Assembly: GCA_024181965.1 (NCBI GenBank)
Contig: BQXS01010956.1
Location: forward strand, 1-40,798
Direction: 5' to 3'
DNA: 40,798 nt
DNA from: Aduncisulcus paluster
Lineage: Eukaryota
Part shown: positions 14,531-40,300 of the stretch, one piece after another
Position numbering within the stretch: position 1 is the first letter of the stretch
Layout: every line of letters begins with the position of its first letter
Program-made: the position numbers and the translations under genes
Notes under the pieces: generated by a model
Seen by the model: the letters and a program-made list of their open reading frames with translations, nothing else
Told to the model about the DNA's origin: nothing
Databases searched by the model: none

Positions 14531-17500
14531 ATGAGATATCAACGAAATCTCCTTTTCTTTTTCGTTGCTTTAGTTATCCTTATTGTTGTGTCTGCAGAGT
14601 ATGATAGGAGAGGTTCTGACCGCGATAGAGATCAAGAATATTCTATGGATAAATCTCGTGATTCTCGTGGAGGATCAGTGTTTGGTGACTATTGGGAGGA
14701 TTCCTGGGGTGAACGCCGGACTTGGAAAGACTCGATGGATGAAAGAGGCCGTTTTGACACCAAAAAAGAAGACACCAAAAGATATAATCAACATGGTAAA
14801 TGGCAAAAGCATCACCACGAACCAAAGTGTGCTTACTGTGATAACACTCCCGAAGCCGAAATAATGAGTCAATTCTACTATCAAACTGATGGATGGGAAT
14901 GGGCTGGAGAAGATAGCCATTGGCTTGATTGTGACTGTCCTGTTTGTGAGTGGGATGAGGGCATTGAGTGTGAATTTGGTCATATTGTTGCTCTTAATTT
15001 CGAGAACCGTGACTTAGGAGGTCAACTCCCCTGGTTCTTACATTTATTACATCATATTCACTCTGTTAATCTTTCTAATAATCACATTCTTTCACCTCTC
15101 CCAGATGAAATTTGTGATTTGATTCAAAAAGTTGATTATCTTGATCTAGGTAATAATGATCTTACTGGTGACATTCCAGAATGTCTTTGTTCGATTCATC
15201 CTTCTCCCGATAAGTGCCACCCATCTGTTGTGAGGCTCAATGGAAATGATCTCAAATCTTTCCCCGACTGTGAGTGTGAGACCCCATTTTTATCTGAACT
15301 TGATGTTTCTTGCAATAGAATTAAAGAGATTCCTGAATCTTTCGCCCAAGCCGGTATTCGTAACGGTGGAAGTGTTGACATCTTCAAATCTTATAACAAC
15401 GAACTCGAATGCCCTTGCTCTCTTCGTGATGATGAAAACAATGATCCTAACTCCCCATTTGAGTCTTACGTATGTGAAGACATAGAGTGTGATCATTGCC
15501 AAGGTTCTCTTTTCAACGAGTGCCCAGAGTGTATTATCTATGGTGATTGCTGTTACGGATCTCTTGTTCAGAAGAAGGAAGTTGAAATGCTAATTGTTCG
15601 TAGGGATATTCCATTAACTGGATACCGTAAAATCAAACAAAAGAACCGTAAGAAGAATAAGGACAAGTGGTACAAGAATAANNNNNNNNNNNNNNNNNNN
15701 NATGAAAACAATGATCCTAACTCCCCATTTGAGTCTTACGTATGTGAAGACATAGAGTGTGATCATTGCCAAGGTTCTCTTTTCAACGAGTGCCCAGAGT
15801 GTATTATCTATGGTGATTGCTGTTACGGATCTCTTGTTCAGAAGAAGGAAGTTGAAATGCTAATTGTTCGTAGGGATATTCCATTAACTGGATACCGTAA
15901 AATCAAACAAAAGAACCGTAAGAAGAATAAGGACAAGTGGTACAAGAATAAGAGTCAAAGTCAGAAGTGGATCAAGAAAGATGATGAAGATTGTGATGAC
16001 GAAACCCCATCTCCTGGTTCTCATCTTCCATATAATGAACACTCTTCAGGAATGGAAGACTTAGATCACATCTGGAATGATTTTGGAAGAAACAACTCGA
16101 AATCAAAGGACAGAAAAGACAAGAAGGACAGGAAAGACAAGAAGGACAAGAAGGACAAGAAGGACAAGAAGGACAAGGGTAGAGATATGAAGAAGAGAGA
16201 TAACAAGAGAAGAGACAAGAAGTACTACGATTCTCGTTCCGAGTATTCTCGCCATTCTCTCTCTGAGCAATCCTATCATGAGTACTCCCATGAACGTTCT
16301 GAATATTCTGAGCGTTCCTATGATAGACCCCATGTTCGTGGTTTCGACATTATGGATGAGGCTGTATATGCTATTGCTGACATTCTTTATTCCGTTACAA
16401 CTTGCCCAATTGAAGAATTCCCATTCTGGAAATTGTGTGACTGCATTACCATATTTGATAATTCTCTTGACACAATTATTGCTCTCTTGCCTGGTGTGTC
16501 TCTCCAAGTTCTCATTGACTGGCTCCGTGACAACCTTGACACGATGAGAGAGTTATATCCAGATAGCACCTACGATTGGTACAATGTGTATTATCTTCTT
16601 CAATCTCTTGAAAAGAGAATATGTATGTTGGACACTCCTGTTCTTGAGGATTGTGATTTAGATGTTGAGTCTATTTACTATCCTCTTGCAGTTTGTGGAA
16701 TTCTCGATGGTATTGAGTGTGAATGCGCATGTGAATTTNNNNNNNNNNNNNNNNNNNNCTGCATTACCATATTTGATAATTCTCTTGACACAATTATTGC
16801 TCTCTTGCCTGGTGTGTCTCTCCAAGTTCTCATTGACTGGCTCCGTGACAACCTTGACACGATGAGAGAGTTATATCCAGATAGCACCTACGATTGGTAC
16901 AATGTGTATTATCTTCTTCAATCTCTTGAAAAGAGAATATGTATGTTGGACACTCCTGTTCTTGAGGATTGTGATTTAGATGTTGAGTCTATTTACTATC
17001 CTCTTGCAGTTTGTGGAATTCTCGATGGTATTGAGTGTGAATGCGCATGTGAATTTGTGTGTGATGAAGAAGCCCTTATCTGTTCCGAAACTGACCCATG
17101 TCCCGTTTTCAACCCTGATGATTGTGATGACCTTGAGTGTCCTGTTTGTGAGTACATCAATCCTGACCCTGTTGAAATCGAGTGTCCCGTATGTGATCGT
17201 ATCACTGCCATTGCAGAAGAAGCAAGAACTTGTTCTGAAGTTGCCCAGACTGATGACGAATCTACTTGCGACTGCCCTCAAGTCCCTCCATGCAATGTTC
17301 AAGTTTGTCCTGATCCCAACTTGTACTGTTTGGTACCTAAGATTGAGAAGCACAAGAAACACAAGAAACATGAAAAACAAATGAGCCGTAAGGAACGTAG
17401 TGAGTCTGAGTGTTCTTATGAATCTGAGAAATGGTCCGAGTATTCCTGTGAGGATGAAAGGTCAGATCGTCACAACAAGAAGGACAAGAGGTCTGACAGA

Positions 17501-19048
17501 AAGGACAACAAGAGAGATTCCAGGAAGAACCGTAGAGAATCCAGTGAAGAGTGCAGTGATGAGTACTCTCACTTTGAATCTTGTTCTGAACAATCATTCA
17601 AACAGGACAAGAAGAACAAGAGATCTCACCAATCTCGTCAGGAATATTCTTGGAGTGAAGGATATTCTCATGAATGGAGTTCAATGTCAAATGATTATCG
17701 CAAGAAATCCAACAAACGCGATTCCAGAAAGGACAAGAAAGATGACAGGAAGAAAGACAGGAGGGATGATAGAGATCGTCGTGACTACGACAGAGAATCT
17801 CGTGACTACGACAGAGAATCTCGTGACTACGACAGAGAATCTCGTGACTACGATAGAGAATCTCGTGACTACGACAGAGAACCACGTGTTGGAGGAAAAG
17901 CCGCTTGTTTGTATTGCACTTGTCCTACTATTGATGATTGTATATGTCCTCAGCACCGTGAGTGCCCAGAGCTTCCAGAATGCCCTGTTCCTGTCCCTTG
18001 TGCTGACCGTTGTTTCGATATTGCGGATGTTAAGTTCCCTGAACCCAAGTGTCAGCAATGTCCTCATTTCCCCAATGATGATCCTCTTATCACCTACGCT
18101 CCTCCTTGTCCTCAGACATCTGGCACCACCACATGTGAGTGTCAATCACAATCCACTTGTGAAGAACTCAGCTGTGAGCTTCCAATATGCAGTTTTGCTG
18201 ATGTCTGCTCTTCAAGTTGGGAATGCTCCAATTCATGGTCTGGTAGTTTCAGCTGGCACTCATGCCGCTCTAACGAGTCTTCCTGTTTCGGTTCTGATGA
18301 CTGTGAATCCAGTGAGTGTCAAAAATTCCACCACAAGGAAGGAGACAAGAAGTTCCGTCGTGTCTGTAAGACTTGGGACAAACTTGATGACGTGAAGCAG
18401 AAGTGGCAATGGGAAGATGGGAAGGAAGAGAAGCATGGCAGACCTTCTTGCTGTCCTCAGCGCAGAAGGGATGATTGCTCTCGTTCTGAGATGAGCGACC
18501 ACTGGGAAAGAAGTGAGAGAGGAAGAGATAGCATGCGTAGAAAAGATGATAAACAATCCTATTCGATGAGCTGTGAACACACTTCTTGTGAAGAATGGAG
18601 TAAGGATTCCAGACGTTCTTCATCAAAGAACAGGAAATCTCAACGTGATTCTCGTAATGAACGTTCTAGAGGTAGTGAAAGAGATAGTTGGGATGAGAGA
18701 AGTGAGAGAAGCCAACGTGGGTCCAGATCTGAAGAAGAGTCCTTCTCTGCCAAATCATATGGAAGTGGTAAGAAGTCACAGAAATCAAGCAACAAGAGCA
18801 GAGATTCTGACAAAAAGAACAAAGATTATGACAAAAAGGACAAAAAGGACAAAAAACATGGAAAGAAGGAGAATCACAAACATAAGAAACACGATGATAT
18901 CTTCTGTGATAAAGATGGAAAATGCCAAGACAAATACGGAAGGAAACACACCTATTCTGGCCCATGTGATGAAGGTTGTCCTTTCACATGGCACCGCCTT
19001 TTCAACCCATACAAGGATGAATGTCCACAAACCCACAAAAATAAGTAA
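14531..19048 (+). CDS. Giant secreted cyst-wall-protein (CWP)-like protein: signal peptide, CWP-type LRR/Cys domain, alternating charged low-complexity and Cys/Pro-rich modules
   Basis: Hydrophobic signal peptide LLFFFVALVILIVVSA. The region 14837-15560 has FYYQTDGWEW...WL...CEW.GIEC, LRRs including LTGDIPECLC and FLSELDVSCN, and YVCEDIECDHC...CP....GDCCY, matching the layout of Giardia CWP1-3. The true length is about 1309 aa after removing two in-frame gap duplications (90 and 106 codons). Confidence 0.8.
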   Translation: MRYQRNLLFFFVALVILIVVSAEYDRRGSDRDRDQEYSMDKSRDSRGGSVFGDYWEDSWGERRTWKDSMDERGRFDTKKEDTKRYNQHGKWQKHHHEPKCAYCDNTPEAEIMSQFYYQTDGWEWAGEDSHWLDCDCPVCEWDEGIECEFGHIVALNFENRDLGGQLPWFLHLLHHIHSVNLSNNHILSPLPDEICDLIQKVDYLDLGNNDLTGDIPECLCSIHPSPDKCHPSVVRLNGNDLKSFPDCECETPFLSELDVSCNRIKEIPESFAQAGIRNGGSVDIFKSYNNELECPCSLRDDENNDPNSPFESYVCEDIECDHCQGSLFNECPECIIYGDCCYGSLVQKKEVEMLIVRRDIPLTGYRKIKQKNRKKNKDKWYKNXXXXXXXXENNDPNSPFESYVCEDIECDHCQGSLFNECPECIIYGDCCYGSLVQKKEVEMLIVRRDIPLTGYRKIKQKNRKKNKDKWYKNKSQSQKWIKKDDEDCDDETPSPGSHLPYNEHSSGMEDLDHIWNDFGRNNSKSKDRKDKKDRKDKKDKKDKKDKKDKGRDMKKRDNKRRDKKYYDSRSEYSRHSLSEQSYHEYSHERSEYSERSYDRPHVRGFDIMDEAVYAIADILYSVTTCPIEEFPFWKLCDCITIFDNSLDTIIALLPGVSLQVLIDWLRDNLDTMRELYPDSTYDWYNVYYLLQSLEKRICMLDTPVLEDCDLDVESIYYPLAVCGILDGIECECACEFXXXXXXXCITIFDNSLDTIIALLPGVSLQVLIDWLRDNLDTMRELYPDSTYDWYNVYYLLQSLEKRICMLDTPVLEDCDLDVESIYYPLAVCGILDGIECECACEFVCDEEALICSETDPCPVFNPDDCDDLECPVCEYINPDPVEIECPVCDRITAIAEEARTCSEVAQTDDESTCDCPQVPPCNVQVCPDPNLYCLVPKIEKHKKHKKHEKQMSRKERSESECSYESEKWSEYSCEDERSDRHNKKDKRSDRKDNKRDSRKNRRESSEECSDEYSHFESCSEQSFKQDKKNKRSHQSRQEYSWSEGYSHEWSSMSNDYRKKSNKRDSRKDKKDDRKKDRRDDRDRRDYDRESRDYDRESRDYDRESRDYDRESRDYDREPRVGGKAACLYCTCPTIDDCICPQHRECPELPECPVPVPCADRCFDIADVKFPEPKCQQCPHFPNDDPLITYAPPCPQTSGTTTCECQSQSTCEELSCELPICSFADVCSSSWECSNSWSGSFSWHSCRSNESSCFGSDDCESSECQKFHHKEGDKKFRRVCKTWDKLDDVKQKWQWEDGKEEKHGRPSCCPQRRRDDCSRSEMSDHWERSERGRDSMRRKDDKQSYSMSCEHTSCEEWSKDSRRSSSKNRKSQRDSRNERSRGSERDSWDERSERSQRGSRSEEESFSAKSYGSGKKSQKSSNKSRDSDKKNKDYDKKDKKDKKHGKKENHKHKKHDDIFCDKDGKCQDKYGRKHTYSGPCDEGCPFTWHRLFNPYKDECPQTHKNK
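15432..15951. repeat. 250-bp exact direct duplication flanking a 20-N gap (probable scaffolding artefact)
   Basis: 15432-15681 equals 15702-15951, with N at 15682-15701. The offset of 270 keeps the frame. Confidence 0.9.
16109..16177 (+). repeat. 9-bp coding tandem repeat (GACAAGAAG-like; DKK/DRK)
   Basis: About 8 imperfect units encoding DRKDKKDRKDKKDKKDKKDKKDK. Confidence 0.85.
16441..17056. repeat. 298-bp exact direct duplication flanking a 20-N gap (probable scaffolding artefact)
   Basis: 16441-16738 equals 16759-17056, with N at 16739-16758. The offset of 318 keeps the frame. Confidence 0.9.
17780..17881 (+). repeat. 21-bp coding minisatellite x5 (RDYDRES)
   Basis: CGTGACTACGACAGAGAATCT repeated five times, with one synonymous GAT variant and a truncated last unit. 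Confidence 0.95.
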
Positions 19049-19372: not shown

Positions 19373-22300
19373 ATGGAAGAGCTTGAAGAGTATATTCTAG
19401 ATAGTGATACCATTGAAATTACAGATGAATTTTTTGGTCAAGGACCGTATAGTTTTACAATGAAGGGAAATCTTCTTTCCACTGAGGAACCTCATGAGGA
19501 GATGGCAGAATCTGATCGTCAGATGGCTGCTGTCCTTCGGAGACGAATTGATATTGATGATGATATTTTAGACGAAATTTCAGCAAAAGGGGCTAAACAT
19601 GGCCTCGTTCCACGGACATCTCGATCTACCCGTACCCCTGTGACCATTCGATCTGATAAATCAGATGTATTATTTTCACTACGAGCTTCCCCTAGAGTTT
19701 CTACATCGGAAGAAATATCCCCCCGTCCTCCAAAAAAGAAGGTTCCGCGAGTTGAGAAAGAAGTAATTATTAAAATGTTTTGCTTCCAATGTGAGCTGCC
19801 ATCAGTTGCACATCAACTCGTTCATTTCATTGATGTTTCTCGTCGTGACGATCTCCATGTTCCAATTTTGGGTATCTATTTTGGTTCTGATGATCTTGTT
19901 GGTATTGTAACCCCATACTTCCCTCACTCCTTCTCTCGCTTTGTGTTTGGAAGCAGCATCACCCCTACAATTCGTTTTTCAATGCTCCTCCGTCTTGCCG
20001 AATCATTATCGCAGATCCATGCCGTTGGATTCTCCCATGGTCGTCTTCACGTGGATAATGTCTTTGTTCGAGACGATGGAACTGTTATTCTGTGTGATCA
20101 TGGATATGGTCTTATTGAGGATGTTTTACTCATCAATAGGGGGAAAGAAGAGGAAATCGAAATGGCAAAAGAGTTCATACCTGGAATGGTTGTTCCTCTC
20201 CTCGAAAAATACAAAATATGCTCCTGTTTTTACACTTCAAATCGAGATATGGTCTTCAAACGTCTTGTATTTCTCCCACCAGAATATGATATTGAACCAA
20301 TTCGGGATGTCGGTGAGAGGAATTCTGTTTTCAGAAGGCCTACAACCCCTGGTGGTTCTGCTCCACGTTCTTCTTCCTCACTTTCTTCTACTCTCTCTCA
20401 TACCTCGCATAAACCATCACATCCAGGATCTTTCTCGCCTTCTTCCTCCGTATCTGTTGGTCAAACAGCCAAATACGGATCATTTCTCCCTCATTTCATC
20501 GCTCCAAAGCCATACTCTCCTTCCTTCGACATGTTCTCGCTTGGAATGATTTTTCTCCATGTTATGTCGGAGAGTGTGCCATTTGCTAGTTGTCTTGAAA
20601 GCGAGAAACAGACCAAGTTTTTCCAGGGACGTGCTGTTGTCCGTCAATTACTCAGAAACAACCAATTTCCCTTTTTGCAGCTTGTTGGTGGAGAGTTTGA
20701 TTGTTGTGTCCTTGTAAGTGGACCCTCCCATCTTCGGTATACCTGCGACACTGTGTGTGAACTCCTTAAGGGTCTTCTCCGTGATGAAGTTGAAAATGCA
20801 CGTGCTGTTTGTCCATCACTCTCACATATCGTGGCCTCTGTTGCCTCAAACGCTGGGATTTTGAGAATGTTTGACAATGAAATTCTGTCAAATCCACTCC
20901 AACTATCATCTTTCCTCATCCTTCTACAATCAGGAGTTGTTCCTCTCACAGCTTTGCAAATAAGGACCCCTTTTACAAACCCAGCAACTCTATTTCATTC
21001 CTTGCGATATGTTCCACGGTTGCGAAGAATGTCAATCGATCTTTCTGATGGAACAGATTTAAATATTTTCGCTGACGAACTTCAATTTTTGACAAGATTG
21101 AAAAGCCTAAAAATAGATTTATTGCGCAAAGTTCACACCGATGAAGATGATATCCTTGCAGTTCTGAAAGAAATGGAGCAACTTCATGAAATTGATGATT
21201 TCTGCTTTTCTTTCACTGGTGGAATGAGAAATGCCTTTCCACGTGTATCAAAGCATCTTGTATCCAGTATTTCTTCATTCAAACACCTCGTGTCTCTTCA
21301 TATTGCTGCTTTTGCCGTTGATACTTTTGGTCTCGCAGATTGTCTCCGCGATTTAGAAGGCATTCAGAGTGTTATCCTCGAAGATATCGACATTTCCTCT
21401 TCAAGTATCCTCATTGATGCTCTGAAATGCTCAAAGAACTTGAAAGAACTCAGGATAAAACGGTGTACGTTGATCGATCTCTTCCCTCGGAAGGCTAAAA
21501 CCTCTTCGACTGAAGGTAAGAAGAAGAAAATGTTGTCAAGTGCCAGTGAATTAATCAAAAAAGCGAAACATAATGCCAAAATGAAACGATTAAAGCATGT
21601 TATCCCTCCACTCGAAATCCTTGATTTGTCTGATAGCCGCCTTGATTGTGAGTCTGTTTTAACAATACTCGAGCTCTTCAAGCCATACGAACACCTTCAC
21701 ACACTGTGCTTGAAAGGCTGTAAGTTGCTTGATTTGCCTTCGTTCCCTTTAGGAAGTGTCTTTGCCAAAATGCCTTCCCTCAAGGTACTGTCTCTTGCAA
21801 GAGCTGGGATTGAGAGTGTTGATGATCTAGTGGAGATTATTCGTGCGATTAGAGGGATTCAATATCTTGATCTCAGCGCAATAACAGTGGGAACTCAGAT
21901 ATATGAAGTCTTTGCAACTTTGAGGGGGATGAGATTCTTGAAAACTCTAATTCTTGATGAATGTACCCTTGAATCTTTCAGTGTTCGTACATTTAGTCGT
22001 GTTGTACCCGTTTTGCCCGCATTAACTCGCCTTAGTTTCAGTGGAAATCGAGGTGTTGAATATAAGGATCTCCATTCTTTGATTATTGCTGTGGGAAGAT
22101 GTAAAGAGTTACGTTGTTTGAGAGTCACCCGTGCTCACCTTGGAGATAGCTTAGTTCCTGGACTATTGGAATCAGTGCGAAAGATTCCAATTCTGAGAAG
22201 GGTTGATATTCAGTGCAATGATCTTACCAAAAAGACAATGGAACATTTTGATATTTATATGAAACATTATAAAAGACATCTATTGGTCGATCTTAGAACA

Positions 22301-22402
22301 AATTCATTCTTCGTAAACGATGGTGAGAGAATCGGGTATGATAACGGTGCCATATTAGAGTTTGCAATTGGAGATGAATGGTTTTCAAATAAATATTTGT
22401 AA
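19373..22402 (+). CDS. Pseudokinase (TKL-like fold) with C-terminal RNI-like leucine-rich repeats
   Basis: Kinase motifs GQGPYS (Gly loop), VIIK, HGRLHVDN (HRD position), DHG (DFG position), LPPE and DMFSLG. The C-terminal half has LRRs such as LEILDLSDSRL, LHTLCLKGCKL, LKVLSLARAGI, LTRLSFSGN and LRRVDIQCNDL. Confidence 0.85.
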   Translation: MEELEEYILDSDTIEITDEFFGQGPYSFTMKGNLLSTEEPHEEMAESDRQMAAVLRRRIDIDDDILDEISAKGAKHGLVPRTSRSTRTPVTIRSDKSDVLFSLRASPRVSTSEEISPRPPKKKVPRVEKEVIIKMFCFQCELPSVAHQLVHFIDVSRRDDLHVPILGIYFGSDDLVGIVTPYFPHSFSRFVFGSSITPTIRFSMLLRLAESLSQIHAVGFSHGRLHVDNVFVRDDGTVILCDHGYGLIEDVLLINRGKEEEIEMAKEFIPGMVVPLLEKYKICSCFYTSNRDMVFKRLVFLPPEYDIEPIRDVGERNSVFRRPTTPGGSAPRSSSSLSSTLSHTSHKPSHPGSFSPSSSVSVGQTAKYGSFLPHFIAPKPYSPSFDMFSLGMIFLHVMSESVPFASCLESEKQTKFFQGRAVVRQLLRNNQFPFLQLVGGEFDCCVLVSGPSHLRYTCDTVCELLKGLLRDEVENARAVCPSLSHIVASVASNAGILRMFDNEILSNPLQLSSFLILLQSGVVPLTALQIRTPFTNPATLFHSLRYVPRLRRMSIDLSDGTDLNIFADELQFLTRLKSLKIDLLRKVHTDEDDILAVLKEMEQLHEIDDFCFSFTGGMRNAFPRVSKHLVSSISSFKHLVSLHIAAFAVDTFGLADCLRDLEGIQSVILEDIDISSSSILIDALKCSKNLKELRIKRCTLIDLFPRKAKTSSTEGKKKKMLSSASELIKKAKHNAKMKRLKHVIPPLEILDLSDSRLDCESVLTILELFKPYEHLHTLCLKGCKLLDLPSFPLGSVFAKMPSLKVLSLARAGIESVDDLVEIIRAIRGIQYLDLSAITVGTQIYEVFATLRGMRFLKTLILDECTLESFSVRTFSRVVPVLPALTRLSFSGNRGVEYKDLHSLIIAVGRCKELRCLRVTRAHLGDSLVPGLLESVRKIPILRRVDIQCNDLTKKTMEHFDIYMKHYKRHLLVDLRTNSFFVNDGERIGYDNGAILEFAIGDEWFSNKYL

Positions 22403-26776: not shown

Positions 26777-27205
26777 CTAAAATTTAAGATATTGAGGCAT
26801 TTTTCGAACCACTAATCCTTTCAGAGTAAAAAACGAGATCAATATTAGAATAACTCCAAATATTGTCCATATTTCCGTTGAATATTTTCCTCCCATCATT
26901 GAAGCCCTAAAATTATCATCTTTCCACAATTTAATAAGAAACAATATGACAATAGAAGGAAGAATCATATAAAATGCTGCCTTTCCACCTTCCTTTGCAT
27001 ATTGAGTCATTAAAGAATCAGAATAATCCACAACAACATATGTTCCTTGAGAATAATCATATTTATATGAATTCTTTGGCGGATGATTTATCATATTATA
27101 GATGGATCCGCGAAACACGAAAAAGCAGAATAAAAACGATAACAATATGATTATTACATAGGGAGGGTTTCGGATATACCTATTAAAGAACAATTTGAAA
27201 TTCAT
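26777..27205 (-). CDS. OSTC: Oligosaccharyltransferase subunit OSTC/DC2 (OST3/OST6 membrane-domain family)
   Basis: 142 aa from ATG 27205 with 3 TM segments. Motifs GSIYNMINHPP, QYAKEG and LISFFTLKGLVVRKMPQYL match the DC2 pattern GGIIYDVIVEPP...QYIMEG...LLSFF...MKLPGYL. There is no thioredoxin domain. Confidence 0.85.
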   Translation of the reverse strand: MNFKLFFNRYIRNPPYVIIILLSFLFCFFVFRGSIYNMINHPPKNSYKYDYSQGTYVVVDYSDSLMTQYAKEGGKAAFYMILPSIVILFLIKLWKDDNFRASMMGGKYSTEIWTIFGVILILISFFTLKGLVVRKMPQYLKF

Positions 27206-27728
27206 TATCCTCAATTCCGTGCAAAAATTCAATAATTTGGTTTTATTGAGATCTACAGTATATAAAGTTTTAATAATGTTTTAAATTAGAAATTCTACAT
27301 GTTTAATAAAAATTCTTACATTTTGATGCGATAGATTATGCCATCTGAATTTCCAATTTGCCTTTCTTTGTGCCAGTCATTAAGTAATGAAAGATCGACA
27401 ATAGTATTAAAATATTCATTTATATAAATATATATTATATAATAATTTGTTCATAATTAAAAACAATTTTTCTAATATTTACAAAATCCTAATATCGGTA
27501 GTTTTAAAAATTATATAAAATAATTATACCTGCAAATTGTTCATAAAATATTCTGGCCCTCGAAGTTCAAACAGTCTTTTGTCGATATAAAACTATTGTT
27601 GTGATATTAATGTATGTATTTTCCTGAACGATTTTTTTGTCAATTTGGTTTTTATTTAAAAAATTAAAATGTTTTACATTTTCCCTTCCCATTAATGCCT
27701 CAAATTTTATCAATTTCCTTCAGATATA

Positions 27729-28154
27729 ATGGCTGTTTCTAAATCTGCTCCCAAGTCCCGTTCTGCCCGTGCTGGTCTTCAGTTCCCCGTTGGTCGTATC
27801 CACCGTTTCTTGAAGGATGGACGTTATGCCGACCGTATTGGTGCTGGTGCTCCCGTTTTCCTTGCCTCTGTTCTTGAGTACGTTGTTGCTGAAGTTCTCG
27901 AGCTTGCTGGTCGTTGTGCCAAGCAACACACCAGACAGCGTATTGTCCCCAGACACATCATGCTCGCTCTTAAGAACGATCCTGAGTTGGGTAAGCTCTT
28001 TGATGATATCATCATCCCTGGTGGTGGTGTTCTCCCATACATCCACCCTCAGCTCCGGCCCGCTACTAAGGGAGGAAAGGGTAAAGGAAAAGGTAAGGGA
28101 AAAGGTAAGGGTAAGGGTAAAGGAAAGGGTAAGGGCATGAGCCAAGAACTCTAA
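27729..28154 (+). CDS. H2A: Histone H2A, H2A.X-type (C-terminal SQEL), with (GK)10 tail
   Basis: [46 protein letters not shown] and GGVLPYIH. Strong codon bias. Ends MSQEL-stop. Confidence 0.97.
28074..28133 (+). repeat. Gly-Lys dipeptide repeat x10 in the H2A tail
   Basis: Mixed codons GGA/GGT and AAG/AAA. Confidence 0.95.
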
Positions 28155-28195
28155 GCTCATTAATCTATCCTCTTCNNNNNNNNNNNNNNNNNNNN

Positions 28196-28417
28196 AGACA
28201 GCGTATTGTCCCCAGACACATCATGCTCGCTCTTAAGAACGATCCTGAGTTGGGTAAGCTCTTTGATGATATCATCATCCCTGGTGGTGGTGTTCTCCCA
28301 TACATCCACCCTCAGCTCCGTCCCGCTACTAAGGGAGGAAAGGGTAAAGGAAAAGGTAAGGGAAAAGGTAAGGGTAAGGGTAAAGGAAAGGGTAAGGGCA
28401 TGAGCCAAGAACTCTAA
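28196..28417 (+). CDS. H2A: Partial second histone H2A copy or allele (3' half, 5' end in gap)
   Basis: Encodes [19 protein letters not shown]...(GK)10GMSQEL, identical at protein level to the first copy. Confidence 0.5.
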
Positions 28418-28846
28418 GTTCATTAATCTATCCTCTTCACTGTATTGATTATCAATCTTCGAAAATTTCAAGCATTTTGTAAAAACTACCTGGGTTTTTG
28501 TTCTCACTTGAGACCACAACTCAAGAAAATATACTCCTACACCTTCATTTTATTTAATAAATGATAATTGATTTTAATTAATTTTCCTTCATTTTTGGTA
28601 AAAAATTAGTTATGGATCATCTGTTGCGGTCAGTGCGCTCAACCTGTAATGATTCCGCGCAAAATTCCAAATTGCAAATTTAAGAATACGAAAATACCTC
28701 AAATAAATGATTGTTAGATTCTGGTTATTCATAAAATATGGGAACAATCTTCAATATCCGCTTTATCGCATCAGGAACTCAACGTCTCGAAATAAAGCCC
28801 TTTTCTGACAGATCACACACTCACTTTCTTTAATTTTCTCATTTCA

Positions 28847-31170
28847 ATGAGCGTTAATGAGAAGACTGTGCTTTCCTGGATTCAGGATTGCCTTTGTTCT
28901 GGTGTAGATGAAAAGGTGTGGTCTAATATAACATCTGTTTTAAAAGAGAAAGAAAAATTAGTGGAAAAATTCATACGAGGAGAAACCACAACTTTATTAA
29001 CATTTTTAAAACCCATATCATCAAGCGGTAAAGTTGAATATTCATTTCCTTTTTTCAAGAGCTCAACCTTTATTATAATATCTATTGATCGACAATATCT
29101 TCAATCGCCTATTCTTTCATACTTTTTCAGGCGGAAAAAATACATAGGTTCAAAGAGTCTGATGGATATTTCAGAACTTGATGATCCCACAGACATGTTT
29201 GGTTATGGAGAGATTAAAGGAACTTCTTTAGAGACATTAGAAGTTGTTTTAATGGAAATATTCAAACCATCCTTTGATTTAGCAAAAATATCATGGTCGT
29301 CATTTGCCTCTTCTCAGTTCGACACTGTATATGCATGGTTCACTCATTTTATGAGCGAACTCAATGGAACACTTCGCCATTGTATTGCTCTCACAAGTCC
29401 TACTGAACTTTTAGAATATTTGAGACGTCAAGGAATGCAGGGTTTAACTGCTGCTGCAAATCTTGCCTCAAGTGATTCCCATGTTCAACATCTTGCTGAT
29501 CAGCAAGTTCATAAATGGATAGATCAGGTGAAAGTTGCTTTGGAAGAGTGTGTTGATTGCGATAGTGATTTCATTCATATGAGTCCCCTGAATTATGATT
29601 CTCTCTCGCCTCTCTCACTTCTTGCCCGCTGGAGAAATACTATGGCAACATGCTCATCGTTGCAACAACAATTTTCTCGTAAAGATGTGCGTAATGTCCT
29701 CGCCGTTGTTGCTCTTTCAAGGGCTTCTTCTGCAATGAAATTGTGGCGCATGCAAGAATCAATAACATCAAAGAAACTCGAATCTTCCAAAACCATTGTC
29801 AAGACTCTTAGTTTATTTGAACGTCTTTTTGCTGCCATTTCGTCTCCTTCTGTTCTCCCTGATACTTGTTTATCTTTATTGAGTTCGACCTTTGCTCACC
29901 AATCCGACTCCCAAGAGAGAGCCGAAAAGAAACTCACAAAGTCTCGGCGTAGTTCTCTTGGGTCAGCTCCTCCGTCCATCACCCTCACAAAAGTTGTTCC
30001 CTTCTCTGCTCCAACCGTTTCTAACTTCTCCTCCCATTTTATATCTCTATGTTCCCTTCCAAAGACTCTTTCAAGGGAGGTTTTGAGGAGAATATCTTTC
30101 CAAGTTTCGCACAATGTCATGGTTGCCGTTGTCAATACTTGCTCCGAAATAATTGCTCTCTCCGAACAGACTCAACGTGGACTCCAAGAAATTGATGATG
30201 AATCCAAGGGTCATGGTCTCAGTAGAGCCATTTCTCCCAATCAACAGCGTGCATCCCTTGATCAAACATCAAAATCTACGCAAAAGGACGATTCAATTCG
30301 TTCCATGTTGAAGGATGGAGTGGACATTGACCTCATTAACGACCCCATGATGGATGTAACAGAGAAGGCAATGCGAATCGTTGCTGAACAAGAAAAACAA
30401 CAGAAGGAAATCGAACATCGTACAAGGAAAGGCAGGAAGAAATCCAAAATAGATGCGGCATCCGCGCTCCACGACGATTCTGTAAGAAACAAAATCAACA
30501 AAAAGATGAAAAATCCCAACAAAACTCACATTAATCGTTATAACATCCCATTTTCATATGAATTACTTCAGAGAACTATCCAAATGGCTTGTCATCCTTC
30601 TCTCCCTACTATCCTCTCCATCCAGCCTCTTCTTGATGTCCTATCGACTCCAATTGGAGCTTTAGACATGATGCGTTCGTTGATTGCAGATTATTTCGAG
30701 TGTTTGGATGAAATCCGTCGAGAGGAATTTGCCAGTACATCCTCCCTTGCCTCTCTCTCCCGTTCCATGTCCCAAGCCAATACTCCAAAGATGGCATCAC
30801 AGGCATTCAAACCATTATACACAGCCCATGAAATGGCAGCCATATCCGCGACAATCCTTGCCCCTCTGATTGAGTTAGAAAAACGTTGTTCCGAGATCAG
30901 CAATCTCACTTCTCTCCTTTTCCAATACCAATCCATCCTTTCCCTTGTAGGTGAGAAGGAGAAAGAGAAAGAGTTGGAAAGAGAAAGAGAAAGGGAGAGG
31001 GAAAGAGAGTTGAAGGAAAAAGAGAAAGAGCGTGATCAAAAAATCGAGAGGGAACGTGATCTTGAACGAGTTCGCGAAAAGACCCGTTCACAGCCGGACT
31101 CTTCCAAAACTGAGCAGAGAGATCGGGATGGTGGGTCAAGTGCTTTGGATGCAGGCAGTGAGCTACAATC
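28847..31170 (+). CDS. Divergent dynein heavy chain-like protein, N-terminal tail segment (continues past the gap)
   Basis: SLETLEVVLMEIFKP and PLSLLARWRNTMATCSSLQQQFSRKDVRNVLAVV resemble the DHC_N1 tail (P..E..FW..R...L..I.EQL....V..VL). The stop at 31204 is produced by the gap duplication. Confidence 0.75.
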
Positions 31171-31361
31171 NNNNNNNNNNNNNNNNNNNNGGAAAGAGAG
31201 TTGAAGGAAAAAGAGAAAGAGCGTGATCAAAAAATCGAGAGGGAACGTGATCTTGAACGAGTTCGCGAAAAGACCCGTTCACAGCCGGACTCTTCCAAAA
31301 CTGAGCAGAGAGATCGGGATGGTGGGTCAAGTGCTTTGGATGCAGGCAGTGAGCTACAATC
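31000..31361. repeat. 171-bp exact direct duplication flanking a 20-N gap (artefact; breaks the dynein ORF)
   Basis: 31000-31170 equals 31191-31361, with N at 31171-31190. The offset of 191 is not a multiple of 3. Confidence 0.9.
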
Positions 31362-34300
31362 TATGGAGATGACCTATGGCGATGGCATGGACGATGAAAA
31401 TGGATCAAAACTGAGGTTAGAGGAAGAACGCCGGAGAATTATCGAACAGAAGGATGCTTTGTTACACCATCGTTCTGCCATCCCTGAAGGATCATCTTCA
31501 CGTGTGGGAATGGATAAAAATGAAGAAGAATCTGAAGAAATGTCGTCAACATCAGATGGCGAAGATCGTCGTCTATTAAATCCACTCACCTGTTCCAACG
31601 ATCCTGTTCCTTCCTCTCTCCTCCCCATGCCCCAACTTCCACCTTCTCTTTCATTATTTGACCTATTCTTATGTCCTTCTTCATCATTCGATTCCCTATT
31701 CTCTTCCACCGGTTCTCATATTCTATCCCTTGATACGATGCTTGATGTAATCGTGTCAAAGCAATTTTCATCATCTTCTTCCATTCTATCGGCTGTGAAG
31801 GTGCTTGAGAGATACACATCAATTCTACACACAAAATACCTCAAAGGACTATTGTATTCAAGGTTTATTGAGGTATGTGTTCGTTTGTTTGAAGAGGTTG
31901 AGAATGTTGCGAAACAATTCGAACATCTCAAGCGGAACCCACCCTTGATGCGTGGTCACAGTAAGGTTGGTGGTGCTCTCATGTGGGTCAGACGTTTGAG
32001 TGATCGCATTGAGAAACCCATGTCTCTGCTAGTCTTATGTTCTCCTCAGAGGTTAAAGGGAACCGAGGAGTGGAGAAGACTCGTGAGCACATACAATCTC
32101 ACTGAACGTGCTTTGGTCCAATATGAGAGACATACTCATGAGATATGGTGTGACGTGATGGAGATATCTCCAGCAGCATTGAAATGCTCCCTCCTCGTCG
32201 TGAGAAGGGAAGCTGATGAAGAAGAGAGGATCAACAGGATGGGCGTTCAACGTGAAATAGATCCTGATATTAAATCCGTGACTCCCAGTGATTTGTTGGA
32301 CGATGAGCCTGAAAGCCTTAGCAAACCCAGTTCAAAGGGAACTTCAAACGGAAAGATAGTATCTTCTAAGGAGGCAAATCCGAAAGCAAATCGAAGTTCC
32401 TCCCAGCCTTCAATGTACATTTTCCCACCTGCTTTGTCATACCATCTGAATCTTGACCCTTCTGTTTCTGAATGTGATAAAGATGTTCATGCCATGAGAA
32501 TGCTGGGACTTTCAGTGCCTCAAACCCTTCAACAACAACTCACTCATGCGATCGAATGTACAAAGCATAAAGATATATTATTGTTTATTATCAAACGTCG
32601 TCGTGATGAATTTAAGAGAATTCCAAGTCATTTGTGGCCATTACTACTTCCTTTAGCGCTTCAAGTTGAGGTTGAGCTTCGTCCTGCCGTTTCCTCCATT
32701 ACATGGGAATCCTTGAGTATCGGTGGTCTCGTTTCACGAACTCTCGATAGCATTAACCGTCTTCAAAGTGTTCGTGAGCGTGTGATGATGGTGATGCGAG
32801 GTAAAGTTACGCCTAATATTTTTAGTCTTGCTTCCCCTCTCCTCAATATCAATGAGTGTGTTATTTCAGCTCAAGAACCATACCTTCAAGACAAGCAACA
32901 ACAAGTATGTGTTGAAGAAAAGAAAGTGAGGAAACTACTTGCCTTTGTGGAGGATGAGTCAGTTTTCCCTCAACAAATATTCCCTCCATCTCTCCCGTCG
33001 GTTAAGAAGCTTCTTGATATGCTTTTAATATCGAGCCGTAAGAAAAAGAAAGAGATGAAACGAATCGTTGGAATTATTGCAAGCGGTGTTCTTGAAATCT
33101 GTGTTATATGTCATAGTTATATCGATTTATTTTCAAACATTGCTCCATTTACTGGCAAATTATCTTTATTCCGCCTTAGTTTGAAACGGATGAAGCGTGT
33201 AACCTCCTCTATTGATGTATATGGACATGCTGTTCGTCATATTGTCTTATGGGTAAATAGTGCCATCATGGGAGTTGTCCGTACATCCCTCAATCGAACC
33301 TTGGCTCAACTCAGACGTCTTGTGCAAAGTCCCATGAAACATCCTTCGAAGTCCTTTGTTGTGAATGAAGGCTGCAATGATCATCAATGTGGCATTTCTC
33401 TGTCATCTGCCCCCGCTCCCTTGTTTACGACTCCCCCATTATGTAATGTTACAATTAAGTTAATGATGCCCCTTTTCACACTGGATCCCCCAATATCTGT
33501 CATATCTACTCAACTTACTCAGTCAATATCTTCTGCAATCCTCACTACACTCTCATTCCCTCTCCTCTCACCATCTTTGATCCTCCAAGGAACAAAGAGT
33601 GAGAGTGCTTTGATGTATTCAAAGGCCCTCAGTGCCAGTACTTTGGGTGAAGGTGGATGGGGCAGTCTGAAAGATGCACCACAGTGGGGCCGGGATCGTG
33701 TTGGCACTTCCCTTTGTAAAATGTGTGATATGAGTGAGAAATGGGGTGCCATATCCAATCCCATGAATGGAATCACCTCTACTCCGATTACTGTGGGATC
33801 ATCAACGATCGTTCCCATCCCAGGAGGACCTCCATCTTCCTCGAGTCCTCCAAGTGGCACATCTTCCCCATCTACAATTACACACAATTCAGGCCTTGAG
33901 ATATATTCTCCTCAGATAACAATTACTCCACTTCATATTTCTACGCTTCCTCTCCTTCTTTCCGCAATATCTTCCCTGTTATCCTTGAGACATACATTTA
34001 CGCAACTCTCCTCAATTCTCAACTTCTATCGTGAACGTGTCGAGGAAATGACACTTCGTTGGCGTGAAAGCGTTGGAGTTCAGAAGGGTGGAAGTGTTAT
34101 GAAACTCCTCAAAAAGGAGAGAGAAAGAGATGCCGAGGGGAAAGCAGATGCCACACAAGAACAAGAAGGAGCTACCCAGACAAAATCTGATCAATCAAAT
34201 TCCAAGAAACAACCTTCTTCATCCCCTTTGCTTGATGAACTTATTGAAAACCCTTCAGAATCTTCTTTAGTGGCCCTTCCAGCTGATTTTGCAACGATGA

Positions 34301-37300
34301 ATAACAAACGATTCATCAAACATTGCCTTGAACTTGAAACGTTGAGAAAAGCCTGGTTAGTTATATCCAGCAGTGGTTCTATCTTCTCTCTTCTTCCCAT
34401 GTTTGTGCGTTTTGGTAATACAATCGTGTCCTGTGCCTCTCTCCGTCACTCGTTGGCAGGAGAAGTAACTGTTAGAACTGGTGTCGTGTTTGTGTCGATG
34501 GGAAATACTCTGAACGCTCTTGTGAATGAAGTGAATTCCCACACTCGATCCTTGGTGTGTAAACTGAGCATTTCTGTGAACACAGCCGAACAATATGCAA
34601 GCACCCTGAAAGCCATTGGTGAGGCTGAAGAAGCATTGCGTGATCTCCCAAAGGTTAGAAGTATTATCAAAGAGTGCTATTGTGTACTTCCTTTACATGA
34701 GAAGGTCCATCTTTCGACTCAAGGAAACAGTACTATGGCTGAGTCTGGTGTTGTTGGTACCCAGGCAGGAAAGTCATGCAAACGTCGTCCTTCGGGAAGA
34801 TTGAGTGATGCAACGCAGTCCCCTTCAACCACAGGTGGTCCATCATCCTCAACAACCCCATTATCTTCCCATGAACAAGCCGTGATCATGTGTATTGACA
34901 CTTTATCACACACTTTATCCCGTTCTAATTCCTCACTCCAAAAGAAGAGACCTATCTTCAGAAACTTGGTTAGTGAAAGATTACGTGCTTATATTGGGGA
35001 TGTTCTTCAGTTCTGGAGTAATGTCGAGGCAAACGGACCCGTAGCTAGGTATTTGAATATCGTTGTGAGCAAAACTACTGGGGCCACCGCTGCTGCTGCT
35101 GCCGCTGCTGCTGCCTCCGGTAGTGGTCTTGGAGTCGGTTTTATTGTTGACAAAACTGGTCGGACTGCCAAAAAGCCTAAGAAAGACAAAGATGAAGATG
35201 AATCCTCAGAATCCTATGACGAATTTGATGAAGAAGAACTTAATGGTTTTGGGAAAGGTGGGCTGTTTTCATCCCAATTTGAGTGGAGTAAGGCTGTTTC
35301 AGTTGCAAAGACTGTCAGTGAAATTATGCTTAGCCAGTGTGTTGAAAGGTTGAGGAATGGAGCTGAAATTCATCAGTGCCAAGTATTATTTGGTATTATC
35401 AAAACCCCATTCCCTGAGCTTGATCGAGCCCACTCATTCCTCAAAGTTTGTTCCCATATCTTTGCCTTTTCTCACTCATTTATCTCTGCTCTCGATGAGT
35501 TTTATGCCCTTCAATGGCGTCAATATGAATCAGATGATGATGAAAATGTTGACCAAGTTCTAAAAAGGGTTAAAAAGATGTGTACAAAAGAATACGATGC
35601 CATGATTGAACACGCTTCAAGCATTGCTGGTCTTGTTGAGCTGGCTCCCGTTAAACATATCGAAGAGATTGTTTTAAAGCATCGTTCTGATATTATTCCA
35701 ATTCTTGAATTGATAAAGAAGGCTAATCTGAGTGCTATCCACTGGAATATTCTCTCTACAATGTGTGTAAGAAGTACAAGTTCCATTCTACCTCCTCTGA
35801 ATTCCATGACAGTGGCTGATGTTATTAACCTCGATATTTCAGTGAATATTCGAGTTGTCATGAATGTAGCAAAACAAGCCATGCAAGAGGGAGAATTAAT
35901 TGAACGAATTCATTCTCTGACTCAACCATGGATCACTGCTTCTTTGATTTGTGTCCGATGCAGTGGAGTTCCTGCTCTTATCAATGCTAAACAAGCCGTC
36001 AATGTTGTCAAAGATGTCCAAAAACACATATTCCCATCAATATCTTTCACCATTCCATTATTGAAAGCCATTACCAGTATTCCTGAGCCCATTTGTGTTT
36101 GTGAAGTCACTTCCACATGTTCTTTAATCCGTAAGTTAAAGAATACCCGTTCATCTCTAATTGCGGTTATTCCAGAATTGTATCAAATGAACAAGAAGAG
36201 GATTGGTGATGGTGATGGTATTCGGAACAGAGAGCAAAACAAGGGAAATTCCAAAGATAAGAAAGATGCTGAGAAAGGAGGAGCTATTTCAAAATCCTCG
36301 TCTAATCCAATTGAAGATGGAACTGTTGGTTCGAACATGCATGACGGAAGTGGGAAATCTTTCCTCACAAATACTATCATTGACACTCATAAATGGCTCC
36401 AGTCTTTATGTGTAACAGAACAGTTCCTTCGTCGATTGATTACTATTCAGGAGAAAGTTCGTCAGATTGTTAACATTAGTTTTGCAGTGAAGAGAGATGC
36501 CATTATCTGTGTAAGAATCACACAAACGAACAAACACAAGGCTTGGCGTTTGGTTCCTGTAGATGTTGCAGACGCTGGCGATACTCCCCGTATAGATGTG
36601 TTTAATGGAGTGTATCAAGGCGACGGAGTCGTGAAGGGGAAAGGAATCATGACAAATGATGCCGGGTTCCCTTTTTTGTCCCACCAACCTTTCACTGTAT
36701 TTCCATGGACTCAAAGCGAACGTGTTCTATCTCTCTGGAAAAGTGTTGAAAAATGTATTCTCCGTGGTGGTCCTCTTATTTCTCTTTGCGGAGATGAAGC
36801 TACTTTTTATCATACTCTCTTGAGAAATATGGAGTCAGCCGTGAGGGCCTTCTTTGATGATATTCCAACATTTTGTTCCCAAATCAGGAAAGTCACTCCT
36901 CTTTTGGCACCCTTAAATGACAATGAAATTGTTGAGATTGTCTCTTGTGGAACAAGTATTCAAAATCCATACTCTCCTTTCCACGCAATCATTAAGAAAG
37001 CTGTGACAGGAATCGGCAGAATTGTCGTTGTATATGCTGATCACGACGAACTAGCTCCAATCAGACCATTTGCCGTAGGATTTCATACTCATCTTGACGA
37101 ATTTGTTCCTTTCAAGGCACCCCTTCCTCTCCCTGTCGATTCTTCAGCTGTCACGTGGTTCAATCATGTGATTGTTGCTTCTCAAATTGCTTTGAAAAAT
37201 CTATTTTTGGATACTCTCGAAGAACTTGAGAAAGTCAGAATTGCAGCAGTGATAAAAGATCATGAAAGGGATGTTACATGTCGATTAGGGGATCTCTTAC

Positions 37301-40300
37301 GGGAACAAGATGATATCGAAACTATTTTTGCAAGTGATACAGTCCAAAATCTTATTCCATCAGATGTTGCCCGAATGAAGGCTCGTCTTGTTGAGATTGG
37401 AAAATTGACCATGTATGAGCGTCGTCACTTACAGAAAACAGAGCAAGTCTCGCCCAATTGTGACTTATTCTCAGTCCTTTTCAATGTTCCCCTCCAAATA
37501 TCTGTCCTTGCCGTGTCTGTGTGGACCACAACAATGATGAAAGGTATGTTACGATTCTCCATCAAGGACCGTGAAAGGAACTTTGCTGCCCTTGCTCTCT
37601 GTGTTCGTGATTTGTGTCGTCGTTGTGGAGATATGGTCGCAGAAAGTGGAGAACAAGAAAGTATTGCACGTGCTGGAACTGCTCAAAAGTCATATGAGCA
37701 ACGTATCAAACAACTTATGGAAGAAGAAATTCGTTTATCGCAGGAAGAAGAACTCGACAGAAGTGCTCGCGAATCCAAGGAAGGATCTGTCGAGAATTCA
37801 ACTCATTCTGAAGCGTTTGAGTTTCATTTCAAACCAGAACCAAAACCTAAATCTATTTCGAATCCACCATCTTCCTATATGAATCATTTACAACAATCAA
37901 AGGTTCCCTCGTGTGTGTTAGATCCAATTTACACCCCCAAACGTATTCTTGCGGTCTCGTTGTCTCTTACTTCCATCTGTAAACACATTGAGAGTACCCT
38001 GTGGCAGTGTGCATGCTGTGATGCTCGTCATATTGAAAAGGAAAAGACAAAGGCCTTGAACAGAGATCGTCGAGAAGGAACAAACAGCGCTGAGGCTTCA
38101 TATCTCTCCATTCAGTGGAAAACAGAGCGTGATAAGATTGAAGAAAGTGTTTGGGAGGGTTATCAAAGTGTCAGAAGTGCCAAGTATTCCGCCAGGAGTC
38201 GTGGTGCTTCATGGTCGCGTAAGAAAGGTACTGGTGATAATTTAACAAGTACTACGTCCGCCTTCCGTGGAATTGGTGCCCCCATCTTCCAACAGGCTTC
38301 TTCAGACCGAATCACGTCTACTTCCCACTTGCACACCAATACTCACCCCCTCACTTCGAATGATGTTTTCTTCTCTGATCGTATCTTCTGTGAATGGAAG
38401 AGTTTGGAAGGCGAAAGAGATCCCGAAAAAGATCCACAAGCTTCTATCCACTGTGAAAGTCAGACATCGATTCAGAAAGATTCTGTCCGTGAGAATGAGC
38501 GTGATCGCCGAAGAAAAGCCGGCGGAGACGATTATCGTCCCAACCCTGAGGAAGAAGAAGATGAATATGAATACCAATATGAAGAAGTATCTGTTGATGA
38601 AGATGATGAAGGATCTTCTTATTCCTCTGATCGGGAGTTTCCTCCAGATAAAACTCAACCATCTCAACAACCTCTGAAGGGAACTTCTCGACTCAGAACT
38701 TCAACTACAAACAAGATGTTAGCATCTGCCATCAATGCTGCGTCTGACAGAATGACTCCAAGATGTTCTCCAAGGGATTCAGCCTCAAATTATCAATCAT
38801 TATTTGCCTCCCACCCATTCATGCTAATGAATCACCCGTCATCTCCATCATTTCCCCCAACTCACATGTTGTTCCCAAAAGATCTCGCTCCTCGTGAATC
38901 TGTCATAGCTACACATTCAATTCTAAGCTCTATGGGTTGGCCTGGAGCTTGTTTACTCATGAATGTCGAAATGAGAACTCGAGAAAAGGAGGAAGAAGCC
39001 AGAAAAGAACTTTCTCAGAAATTAAAGGCTTTGAAACGGAATGATTTTGAGAAGAGAATGGCTGAAGAAAAGAGTTTTATTACCAGCAGAGATGAATCAA
39101 TTTCTCTTGGTCAATCCACTTCATTTTTAAGACGTTCCAGAGTGAAACTTCTTGGAAGACAGAGTGTGGAGATCCCTGCCGATCCTCAAGCCCAAACCCA
39201 ATATCTCAGTTCTCTAGATGATTATGTTTTGGAGACATTCACCGAGAGTGACATGGCACTTTTCTCCCCAAGAGTTATGGGCACCCTGACTCGATTCCCC
39301 CGTGGAGTTCTTCTCCTGCGAGTCAGGAATACGATGCAGGTTTGTCACTGGTTGCCATCAGCCTTTGATACACACACTCTGTCTCTTCCAACTTTGACTC
39401 CATCTTTGGTCCGTTCTGTGAGGAATGTTCTTGAAACAAGCAGTATTGGTGGCTGTGTTTCATTTTCTAATGGTGGAACATCGAGATCATCTGGTTTTGT
39501 GAATGCTTTGAGTTTTCTTTCTTCATTTACGGGAAGACCTTTGTTCCTCCTCTCTCCTCCCAATGTTTGTCAAGGAGAATGTGATGTTTTAACAAGTACA
39601 GAATTGAAGAAAGTTCAAGGGGAGCGACTGGTGAAAACAGTTCAATCTTTGGATTCTGTTAACAGTAAGATTGGAACAAGTGATATCACTGGGATTGGTG
39701 GTGCTTCCTCTGTTCCCGCTGAAGTCATGTCTCTCAACTCTGCTGACCTTTGCTTCGATTGCGGTGGTTCTAAGAGAAAGGCAGCTGCTTCTTCGATATT
39801 TAGAGCCACATCTGAGCCTTCTCCATCAAGAAGTCCCACTTCAAGTGCTCCATCCCATACTTCTCAGCTCACTATCATCAAAGATATGCTGTATTCTGCT
39901 CCTGCTCTTGGGGCAATTGTTTGTGTGCTTGGAACCAGTTCGCATTCAAACACGACTCTTACAGCCGTTGGACTTATGCAAAGTAAGTATAATGAAACTC
40001 AGTTGAAGCGAGGGACTCGTGAATTAACTGTTCAAGCTTGCCTTGAAAATTCTTCATTCACCCATCAAAACAAACTTATTGAAAGAGTTAGTGAACATGG
40101 TGTTCCCTTGACAACTGCTAGATCTGCTACTGCCACCCTCACAACAGCTTCAGCCACTGTTTCAACTCCACCCTATCCTTTCCACACCTCATTTGGCGAA
40201 AGCTCTGAAATCAAACATCTCCCATTACATTCTAGGAGTGGAATGATCATTACTCTGCAATGTAATTGTCATGCTCCTAGTGAGAATCGTGTGGATACCA

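Follow-up and report, generated by a model that had tools for sequence, protein, structure and literature searches.

An H2A.X-type histone gene in Aduncisulcus paluster

In this study, we analyzed a 40,798-nt stretch of DNA (the window) from Aduncisulcus paluster, a free-living anaerobic flagellate and Carpediemonas-like organism (Fornicata, Metamonada), and found that it encodes an H2A.X-type histone H2A of this fornicate (Table 1). The histone fold was recognized by Pfam (Histone, PF00125, E=9e-13), as was the docking domain (Histone_H2A_C, PF16211, E=1e-10), which covers profile positions 2-35 of 35. In the PDB, 213 distinct H2A sequences match the protein. The top match is human H2A type 1-B/E (E=1.7e-42), to which the protein can be aligned as far as residue 123 of the 141. 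All 37 invariant columns of a 30-sequence alignment are retained. An AlphaFold2 model built on this alignment, mediocre in quality (mean pLDDT 63), places helices at residues 23-32, 41-66, 74-83 and 85-90. Residues 115-141 have pLDDT values below 50, so that no structure is predicted for the Gly-Lys (GK) tract they contain.

The C-terminus reads SQEL and is followed directly by TAA. This fits SQ(E/D)Φ, the terminal motif that defines H2A.X according to the Table 3 legend of PMC3380720. An H2A ending in SQEL had been proposed by an earlier, sequence-only reading of this DNA, and Pfam, the PDB matches and direct reading all agree with that proposal. H2A.X is described as polyphyletic, and the main H2A is said to bear the SQ motif in Giardia and yeast (PMC3380720; PMC3510494). 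The gene found here may likewise encode the main H2A of A. paluster. An antisense ORF of 146 aa (27720-28160) was set aside as incidental to the histone frame, with Pfam backing the plus strand.

Table 1. Features of the histone locus, in window coordinates
Feature	Position	Strand	Details and basis
H2A.X-type histone CDS, complete, intronless	27729..28154	+	141 aa + TAA; ORF listing and translation, Pfam, PDB match
Histone-fold region, residues 6-82	27744..27974	+	Pfam PF00125; AlphaFold2 helices
H2A C-terminal docking domain, residues 86-119	27984..28085	+	Pfam PF16211; human H2A alignment
G(GK)10G tract, residues 115-136	28071..28136	+	Direct reading; Tandem Repeats Finder array
Terminal SQEL, residues 138-141, TAA directly after (28152-28154)	28140..28151	+	Direct reading
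20-N scaffold gap	28176..28195	.	Direct reading
Duplicate of 27933-28175, the 3' part of the H2A gene from the next contig end	28196..28438	+	241/243 identical

Several parts of the core depart from other H2As. The N-terminal tail has only 10 residues before RSxxAGL, against a homolog median of 24, and is matched or undercut in length by 5 of 191 homologs. The acidic-patch triplet is DPE, not DEE (NDPEL vs NDEEL); among the 262 homologs scored, 250 have DEE and none has DPE. The acidic-patch glutamates align with those of human H2A. The protein also reads AGRCAKQH, with a cysteine, where H2As in the 30-sequence alignment usually read AGNAARDN, or AGNAARDNKKxR over a longer stretch. Judged by its short tail, DPE and AGRCAKQH, the protein is a divergent H2A, as would fit a fast-evolving lineage. 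The oddities of the acidic-patch triplet and the N-tail fall within 27975-27995 and 27729-27760, respectively.

Genes surrounding the histone gene

The window has 39.4% G+C and four 20-N gaps, and its long ORFs are intronless and free of stops when read with the standard code. Because this code leaves ORFs of 2080 aa and more than 3900 aa open, we discarded the idea of a different code such as some diplomonads use. Upstream of the histone gene lies a 142-aa ORF on the minus strand (26777-27205) with no Pfam family, and downstream a dynein-heavy-chain-like gene starts at 28847. Apart from the 142-aa ORF and two ORFs inside the duplicate, intergenic ORFs of 60 aa or more are absent from the window, in a search that could miss intron-bearing genes. 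Thus, neither H2B nor any other histone partner can be seen in it. Neither a histone 3' stem-loop nor any other Rfam family was detected in 27000-29000, where a sub-threshold match to the S15 leader (E=1) was taken as chance.

The dynein-heavy-chain-like gene (28847-40797, plus strand) encodes at least 3920 aa, in which Pfam recognizes DHC_N1 and DHC_N2 only. The 3145 aa beyond the gap, where AAA1-AAA4 should lie, contain no Walker A motif (GxxxxGK[ST]). The product would be a relative of dynein that has degenerated and is no motor, or else a dynein that has diverged to an extreme degree. On the minus strand, 3434-9676 encodes 2080 aa with one EF3-type HEAT match and 22-25% identity to fungal GCN1-like proteins over about one third of the queried region. 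This product is probably GCN1 in a shortened and highly divergent form. A third ORF (19373-22402, plus strand, 1009 aa) has a partial protein-kinase match and leucine-rich repeats, an architecture that resembles ROCO/LRR kinases. Short repeats are present in two large ORFs: the dynein-like ORF has (ER)5 at 30977-31006, a little ahead of the gap at 31171, and the ORF 14531-19048 has (KDK)5 at 16133-16177.

A scaffold gap with duplicated flanks

The H2A gene ends 21 nt short of a scaffold gap, beyond which its 3' part appears a second time. The original and the duplicate differ at two positions. The first is G at 28058 and T at 28321, a synonymous change (CGG/CGT); the second is C at 28156 and T at 28419, which sits 2 nt into the 3' UTR. 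The 66-nt tract itself is identical, letter for letter, at the two contig ends around this gap.

Duplicated flanks accompany every gap in the window: 250 nt at 15682-15701, 298 nt at 16739-16758, 243 nt at 28176-28195 and 171 nt at 31171-31190. When the gap and duplicate at 31171-31361 were removed, the dynein-like gene became an unbroken frame of 3920 aa. Both observations identify the duplicated flanks as contig-end overlaps and not as real duplications. The segment after the histone gene is an overlapping contig end joined by Ns, an assembly artefact and no second gene. This reading implies one junction, in which ...CTCTTC runs directly into ACTGTATT..., without a second copy. The ORFs that span the first two gaps (14531-19048) contain artificially repeated segments.

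The published A. paluster draft was assembled with MaSuRCA from 150-nt paired reads and is fragmentary, with an N50 of 4.6 kb and a BUSCO score of 40% (PMC9933649). The window presumably stems from this draft, and a read of 150 nt, being longer than the tract, can span it. We searched a collection of 15 billion proteins for the exact 141-aa H2A and for a 64-aa fragment, and neither was found. The neighboring 2080-aa protein from the same contig is present there at 100% identity under the NCBI name Aduncisulcus paluster, which bears out the metamonads, the group that the sequence-only reading had singled out for comparison. The absence of the H2A next to the presence of its neighbor indicates that the annotation is evidently incomplete, and the H2A gene is apparently missing, unannotated, from the public protein set of the draft. 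Perhaps the adjacent gap is the reason. No A. paluster H2A occurs among the 120 homologs listed below, though the database includes A. paluster proteins.

The GK tract varies at synonymous positions only

The protein's C-terminal tail is PATKG(GK)10GMSQEL, as the sequence-only reading had given it; the nucleotides of the window and their translation agree on this. The span 28062-28154 corresponds to ATKG(GK)10GMSQEL and the stop codon. The ten GK units occupy residues 116-135 (28074-28133), with one flanking glycine on each side (115 and 136). Tandem Repeats Finder placed the array at 28073-28135 and assigned it periods of 6, 12 and 18 nt. The large ORFs of the window together comprise roughly 11,960 aa; in them, (GK)10 is the longest dipeptide repeat, and (ER)5 is the only other one of at least four units.

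Glycine in the tract is encoded by GGT (6), GGA (5) and GGC (1), and lysine by AAG (6) and AAA (4). Compared with the 6-nt consensus GGTAAG, the ten units show eight deviations, four at the third position of the glycine codon (GGA) and four at the third position of the lysine codon (AAA). The first and second codon positions deviate in 0 of 40 cases (Fisher p=4.9e-5). Every deviation between units is thus purely synonymous, and the mixture of synonymous codons that had been noticed earlier was found as described. Of the 18 single-base changes that a 6-nt unit can undergo, just 4 are synonymous, which gives a chance of 6e-6 that eight independent events would all be so. The histone core prefers GGT to GGA (9 vs 1) and AAG to AAA (6 vs 1), and the tract is richer than the core in GGA and AAA.

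The superperiods of 12 and 18 nt, seen by Tandem Repeats Finder and in lag counts, suggest that the array probably grew by block duplication, so that fewer than eight of the deviations would be independent. This weakens the selection statistic, which still stands at 2.4e-3 with four events. That all eight deviations are synonymous argues for constraint at the protein level and against fresh slippage. The earlier suggestion that the repeat is held at the protein level is therefore supported, though not proven.

Short GK runs are common in H2A tails, long ones are not

To place the tract among other H2As, we collected homologs and compared their C-terminal regions. The closest homolog, the best of 7080 word-indexed matches, is a metagenome H2A (P0004) that is 71% identical and ends in GKAKGGKGKSQFASQEL. 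The H2As of Carpediemonas are 61-62% identical to that of A. paluster. A phmmer search of 1.84 billion representatives returned none above 68% identity among the best 150. Among the 120 closest homologs, 71 end in SQ(E/D)Φ, and in 52 the last 60 aa contain a run of 4 or more residues in which G and K alternate, corresponding to (GK)2-5.5. The longest such run in this set has 11 residues (P0015). A further 148 proteins from phmmer include 24 with a GK run of at least 4 residues anywhere, and the longest again has 11 residues (P0154). The A. paluster run has 21 residues, and no protein in the whole set of 268 goes beyond 5.5 GK units. The short runs have a scattered distribution that takes in fungi, plants, amoebae, heteroloboseans and metamonads; one homolog, P0017, is from Flabellula baltica. 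In the 30-sequence alignment they share the columns of the A. paluster tract, just before SQ(E/D)Φ.

We also measured the linker, counted from the docking motif G(G/A)(V/I)xPx(I/V). From the 268 proteins, 8 were without this anchor and 169 carried it without ending in SQ(E/D)Φ, which left 91. Their linkers have a median length of 13 aa (interquartile range 11-16, maximum 98), a median of 4 K+R and a median net charge of +3. The A. paluster linker is about twice as long as the median, with 27 aa, 11 K+R and a net charge of +11. Linkers as long or longer occur in 10 of the 91 and linkers with as many basic residues in 5. An equal or higher net charge was found in 3, namely P0075 and P0063 (both labelled Bigelowiella by the sources) and P0042, at +15 or +16. 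A. paluster is therefore not alone in having a long polycationic spacer ahead of the damage motif. A perfect ten-unit dipeptide repeat was seen in no other H2A examined.

Metagenome contigs were searched with the pattern (GGNAAR)7GG, which gave at least 116 loci, and an H2A core lay beside the repeat in 0 of 116 among the matches listed (tblastn, E<=1e-3). These loci (L001-L116) carry at least seven consecutive GK units that do not adjoin an H2A core. A scan of metagenome contigs for close relatives produced 573 pattern matches, none of which was confirmed by tblastn. The tail alone (residues 95-141) gave no hit at E<=0.001 among 8000 candidates, as a query too short and low in complexity to be informative. 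In the literature, the one relevant account that we found of a GK repeat in an H2A-family histone was the work on Trypanosoma cruzi H2A.Z described below, and, judged by titles and abstracts, there was no paper on Aduncisulcus histones.

The sequence-only reading had stated that no such H2A variant was known to it. As stated, this novelty is not supported, given the short GK runs in the C-terminal tail of 52 of 120 homologs, the 3 of 91 linkers that are at least as basic, and the (GK)5 of a Trypanosoma cruzi histone described below. As to whether equivalent GK tails are common among related H2As, short runs of 2-5.5 units are, and runs above 5.5 units are absent from the 268 proteins. Taken together, these comparisons suggest that (GK)10 is an unusually long, perfect extreme of a common linker element and that it represents no new histone class.

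Proposed role of the tract

With reasonable though far from full confidence, we propose that the tract is the GK/KGK element of many H2A.X proteins in expanded form, which would act as a disordered, flexible spacer of charge +11 that presents SQEL and adds contact with DNA. In its most likely role, this polycationic, flexible segment would make SQEL accessible and would touch DNA where it enters and leaves the nucleosome. A short GK/KGK linker element probably grew by duplication of blocks of 6, 12 or 18 nt, after which purifying selection would have kept glycine and lysine while the third codon positions drifted. The resulting tract may hold SQEL out for ATM/ATR-type kinases and phospho-readers, and may bind linker DNA, or other DNA close by, more strongly through its charge. 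Acetylation or ubiquitylation might occur at its ten lysines and could tune the contact with DNA.

For this tail, DNA binding, modification and phosphorylation are inferred. The C-terminal tail of H2A is reported to contact linker DNA and H1 (PMC3510494). The H2AX linker is described in PMC11143218 as positively charged, evolutionarily diverse and functional in vertebrates, where its charge matters for the recruitment of 53BP1. An H1-like role at linker DNA, as suggested in the sequence-only reading, gains plausibility from two analogies, H2A.W and the linker of macroH2A, whose basic sequences are reported to protect 10-16 bp of extra DNA and to promote compaction (PMC8015243, PMC3510494). Metamonads are reported to lack the linker histone H1 (PMC8015243, citing Dalmasso 2011). 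Regarding the kinases, PMC8516963 describes ATM and ATR in Carpediemonas and Kipferlia, the lack of DNA-PKcs in metamonads, and the lack of ATM, ATR and DNA-PKcs in diplomonads, which are also fornicates. A. paluster is not mentioned in the main text of that paper, and the presence of ATM/ATR in this species would be an extrapolation from its relatives.

The main rival to a functional spacer is near-neutral expansion, which we rate as possible but on the unlikely side. Here, a permissive linker would accept almost any flexible basic sequence, and a GK seed would have grown by slippage or unequal exchange under a loose constraint on composition, with no function added to that of an ordinary H2A.X linker. 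The length and sequence of the linker vary freely among H2A.X proteins, so even a tract as long as this one may do nothing particular. The 91 SQ-ending linkers range widely around their median of 13 aa up to 98, with 10 of 91 at 27 aa or more, and the linker is described as evolutionarily diverse (PMC11143218). The scatter of GK runs of 2-5.5 units across fungi, plants, amoebae, heteroloboseans and metamonads points the same way, as do the 12- and 18-nt superperiods, which are typical of block duplication, and the low complexity of neighboring ORFs, which hold (ER)5, (KDK)5, E8 and A9. However, loose constraint does not sit well with 0 non-synonymous against 8 synonymous deviations over ten units. 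Nor would it lead one to expect that none of the 268 proteins exceeds 5.5 units, or that the tract is identical at two contig ends that differ at 2 other sites.

A more specific function is doubtful, in our view: in a lineage reported to lack H1, (GK)10 might work as a built-in, switchable clamp on linker DNA. As long as it is unmodified, its +11 charge would bind the entry/exit DNA and compact chromatin. The clamp would let go once its lysines are acetylated or the serine is phosphorylated, and chromatin would open locally at breaks, so that an H1-like function would be fused to γH2A.X signaling. The serine of SQEL lies two residues downstream of the tract.

An error of assembly, in the repeat length or at the 3' end of the gene, is very improbable. 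The gene does lie 21 nt from a gap with duplicated flanks, in a fragmentary draft. However, both contig ends give exactly the same 66-nt tract, units that are imperfect at the DNA level are easier to place than a perfect microsatellite, and the 150-nt paired reads of the species' published draft, from which the window presumably stems, exceed the tract (PMC9933649). Moreover, the frame stops exactly at SQEL and the stop codon, as it does in H2A.X proteins. Equally hard to credit is a pseudogene, an unexpressed or decaying copy with a drifted tail: the exact protein is missing from a collection that holds its contig neighbor, and the core substitutions are unusual (NDPEL, with DPE in 0 of 262 homologs, and AGRCAKQH for AGNAARDN), but the ORF is intact with 37 of 37 alignment-invariant residues, the codon preference of the core is strong (GGT 9 to 1, AAG 6 to 1), and all variation is synonymous, whether one compares the units of the tract or the coding parts of the two contig ends.

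If the expanded GK spacer is functional, A. paluster would have a core histone that joins a polycationic DNA-binding tail to an SQ motif, a combination called rare in PMC8208582, and would have it in a group said to lack H1. A repeat of a single dipeptide would also be a simple substrate on which to study how tail charge, placed where DNA enters and leaves the nucleosome, affects linker DNA and the reading of γH2A.X. If the tract has no function, it merely extends the known range of variation in H2A.X linkers.

Comparison with known systems

Outside the histones, there is a likeness to DNMT1, whose KG linker of alternating lysine and glycine binds the acidic pocket of USP7 through its lysines in an acetylation-regulated manner (PMC4432644). 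This precedent had been cited in the sequence-only reading and does exist in print. DNMT1 is an unrelated protein in an unrelated context, and as that paper describes the linker, composition alone is shared with the A. paluster tract. Within the H2A family, H2A.Z of Trypanosoma cruzi carries (GK)5 in a tail where acetylation is reported to differ between life forms. In contrast to A. paluster, this repeat is described as part of the N-terminal tail, half as long and with no adjacent SQ motif (PMC8893665).

Two groups of histones with basic tails offer parallels. The linker of macroH2A is lysine-rich and H1-like, follows the H2A fold, and is reported to cut access to extranucleosomal DNA and to favor compaction (PMC3510494, PMC8015243). 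The A. paluster H2A is no macroH2A: it stops at residue 141, Pfam finds only histone families in it and no macro domain, and the terminal SQ motif sets it apart. Plant H2A.W.7 is a hybrid comparable to the A. paluster protein, since it combines the basic tail of H2A.W with an SQ motif (PMC8015243, PMC3510494, PMC8208582). In PMC8208582, hybrids of tail motifs are described as rare, and the motifs as interfering with each other via phosphorylation. H2A.W is a plant clade with KSPKK/SPKK minor-groove motifs. The tail PATKG(GK)10GMSQEL contains no SPKK and belongs to a metamonad, which places it outside this clade. Unlike the H2A.W motifs, the GK tract has no phosphorylatable residue.

H2A.X proteins of the chlorarachniophyte type (P0075 and P0063; also P0042) likewise have a long basic linker, of 30-31 aa and +15/+16, before SQEY. 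Their linkers are rich in K, S and T, mixed in sequence, with short KGK pieces and, unlike that of A. paluster, without a dipeptide repeat. The closest counterparts are the SQ-bearing H2As with short GK runs, such as P0019, P0058, P0071, the plant H2AX P0054 and, as described in PMC3380720, Giardia H2A.X. They share with the A. paluster protein the fold, the docking domain, the terminal SQ(E/D)Φ and the position of the GK/KGK element. A. paluster differs from them by its N-terminal tail of 10 aa, by NDPEL in place of NDEEL, and by the tract itself, which has ten units where theirs have 2-5.5, in a linker of 27 aa and +11, where the 91 linkers measured have a median length of 13 aa and a median charge of +3.
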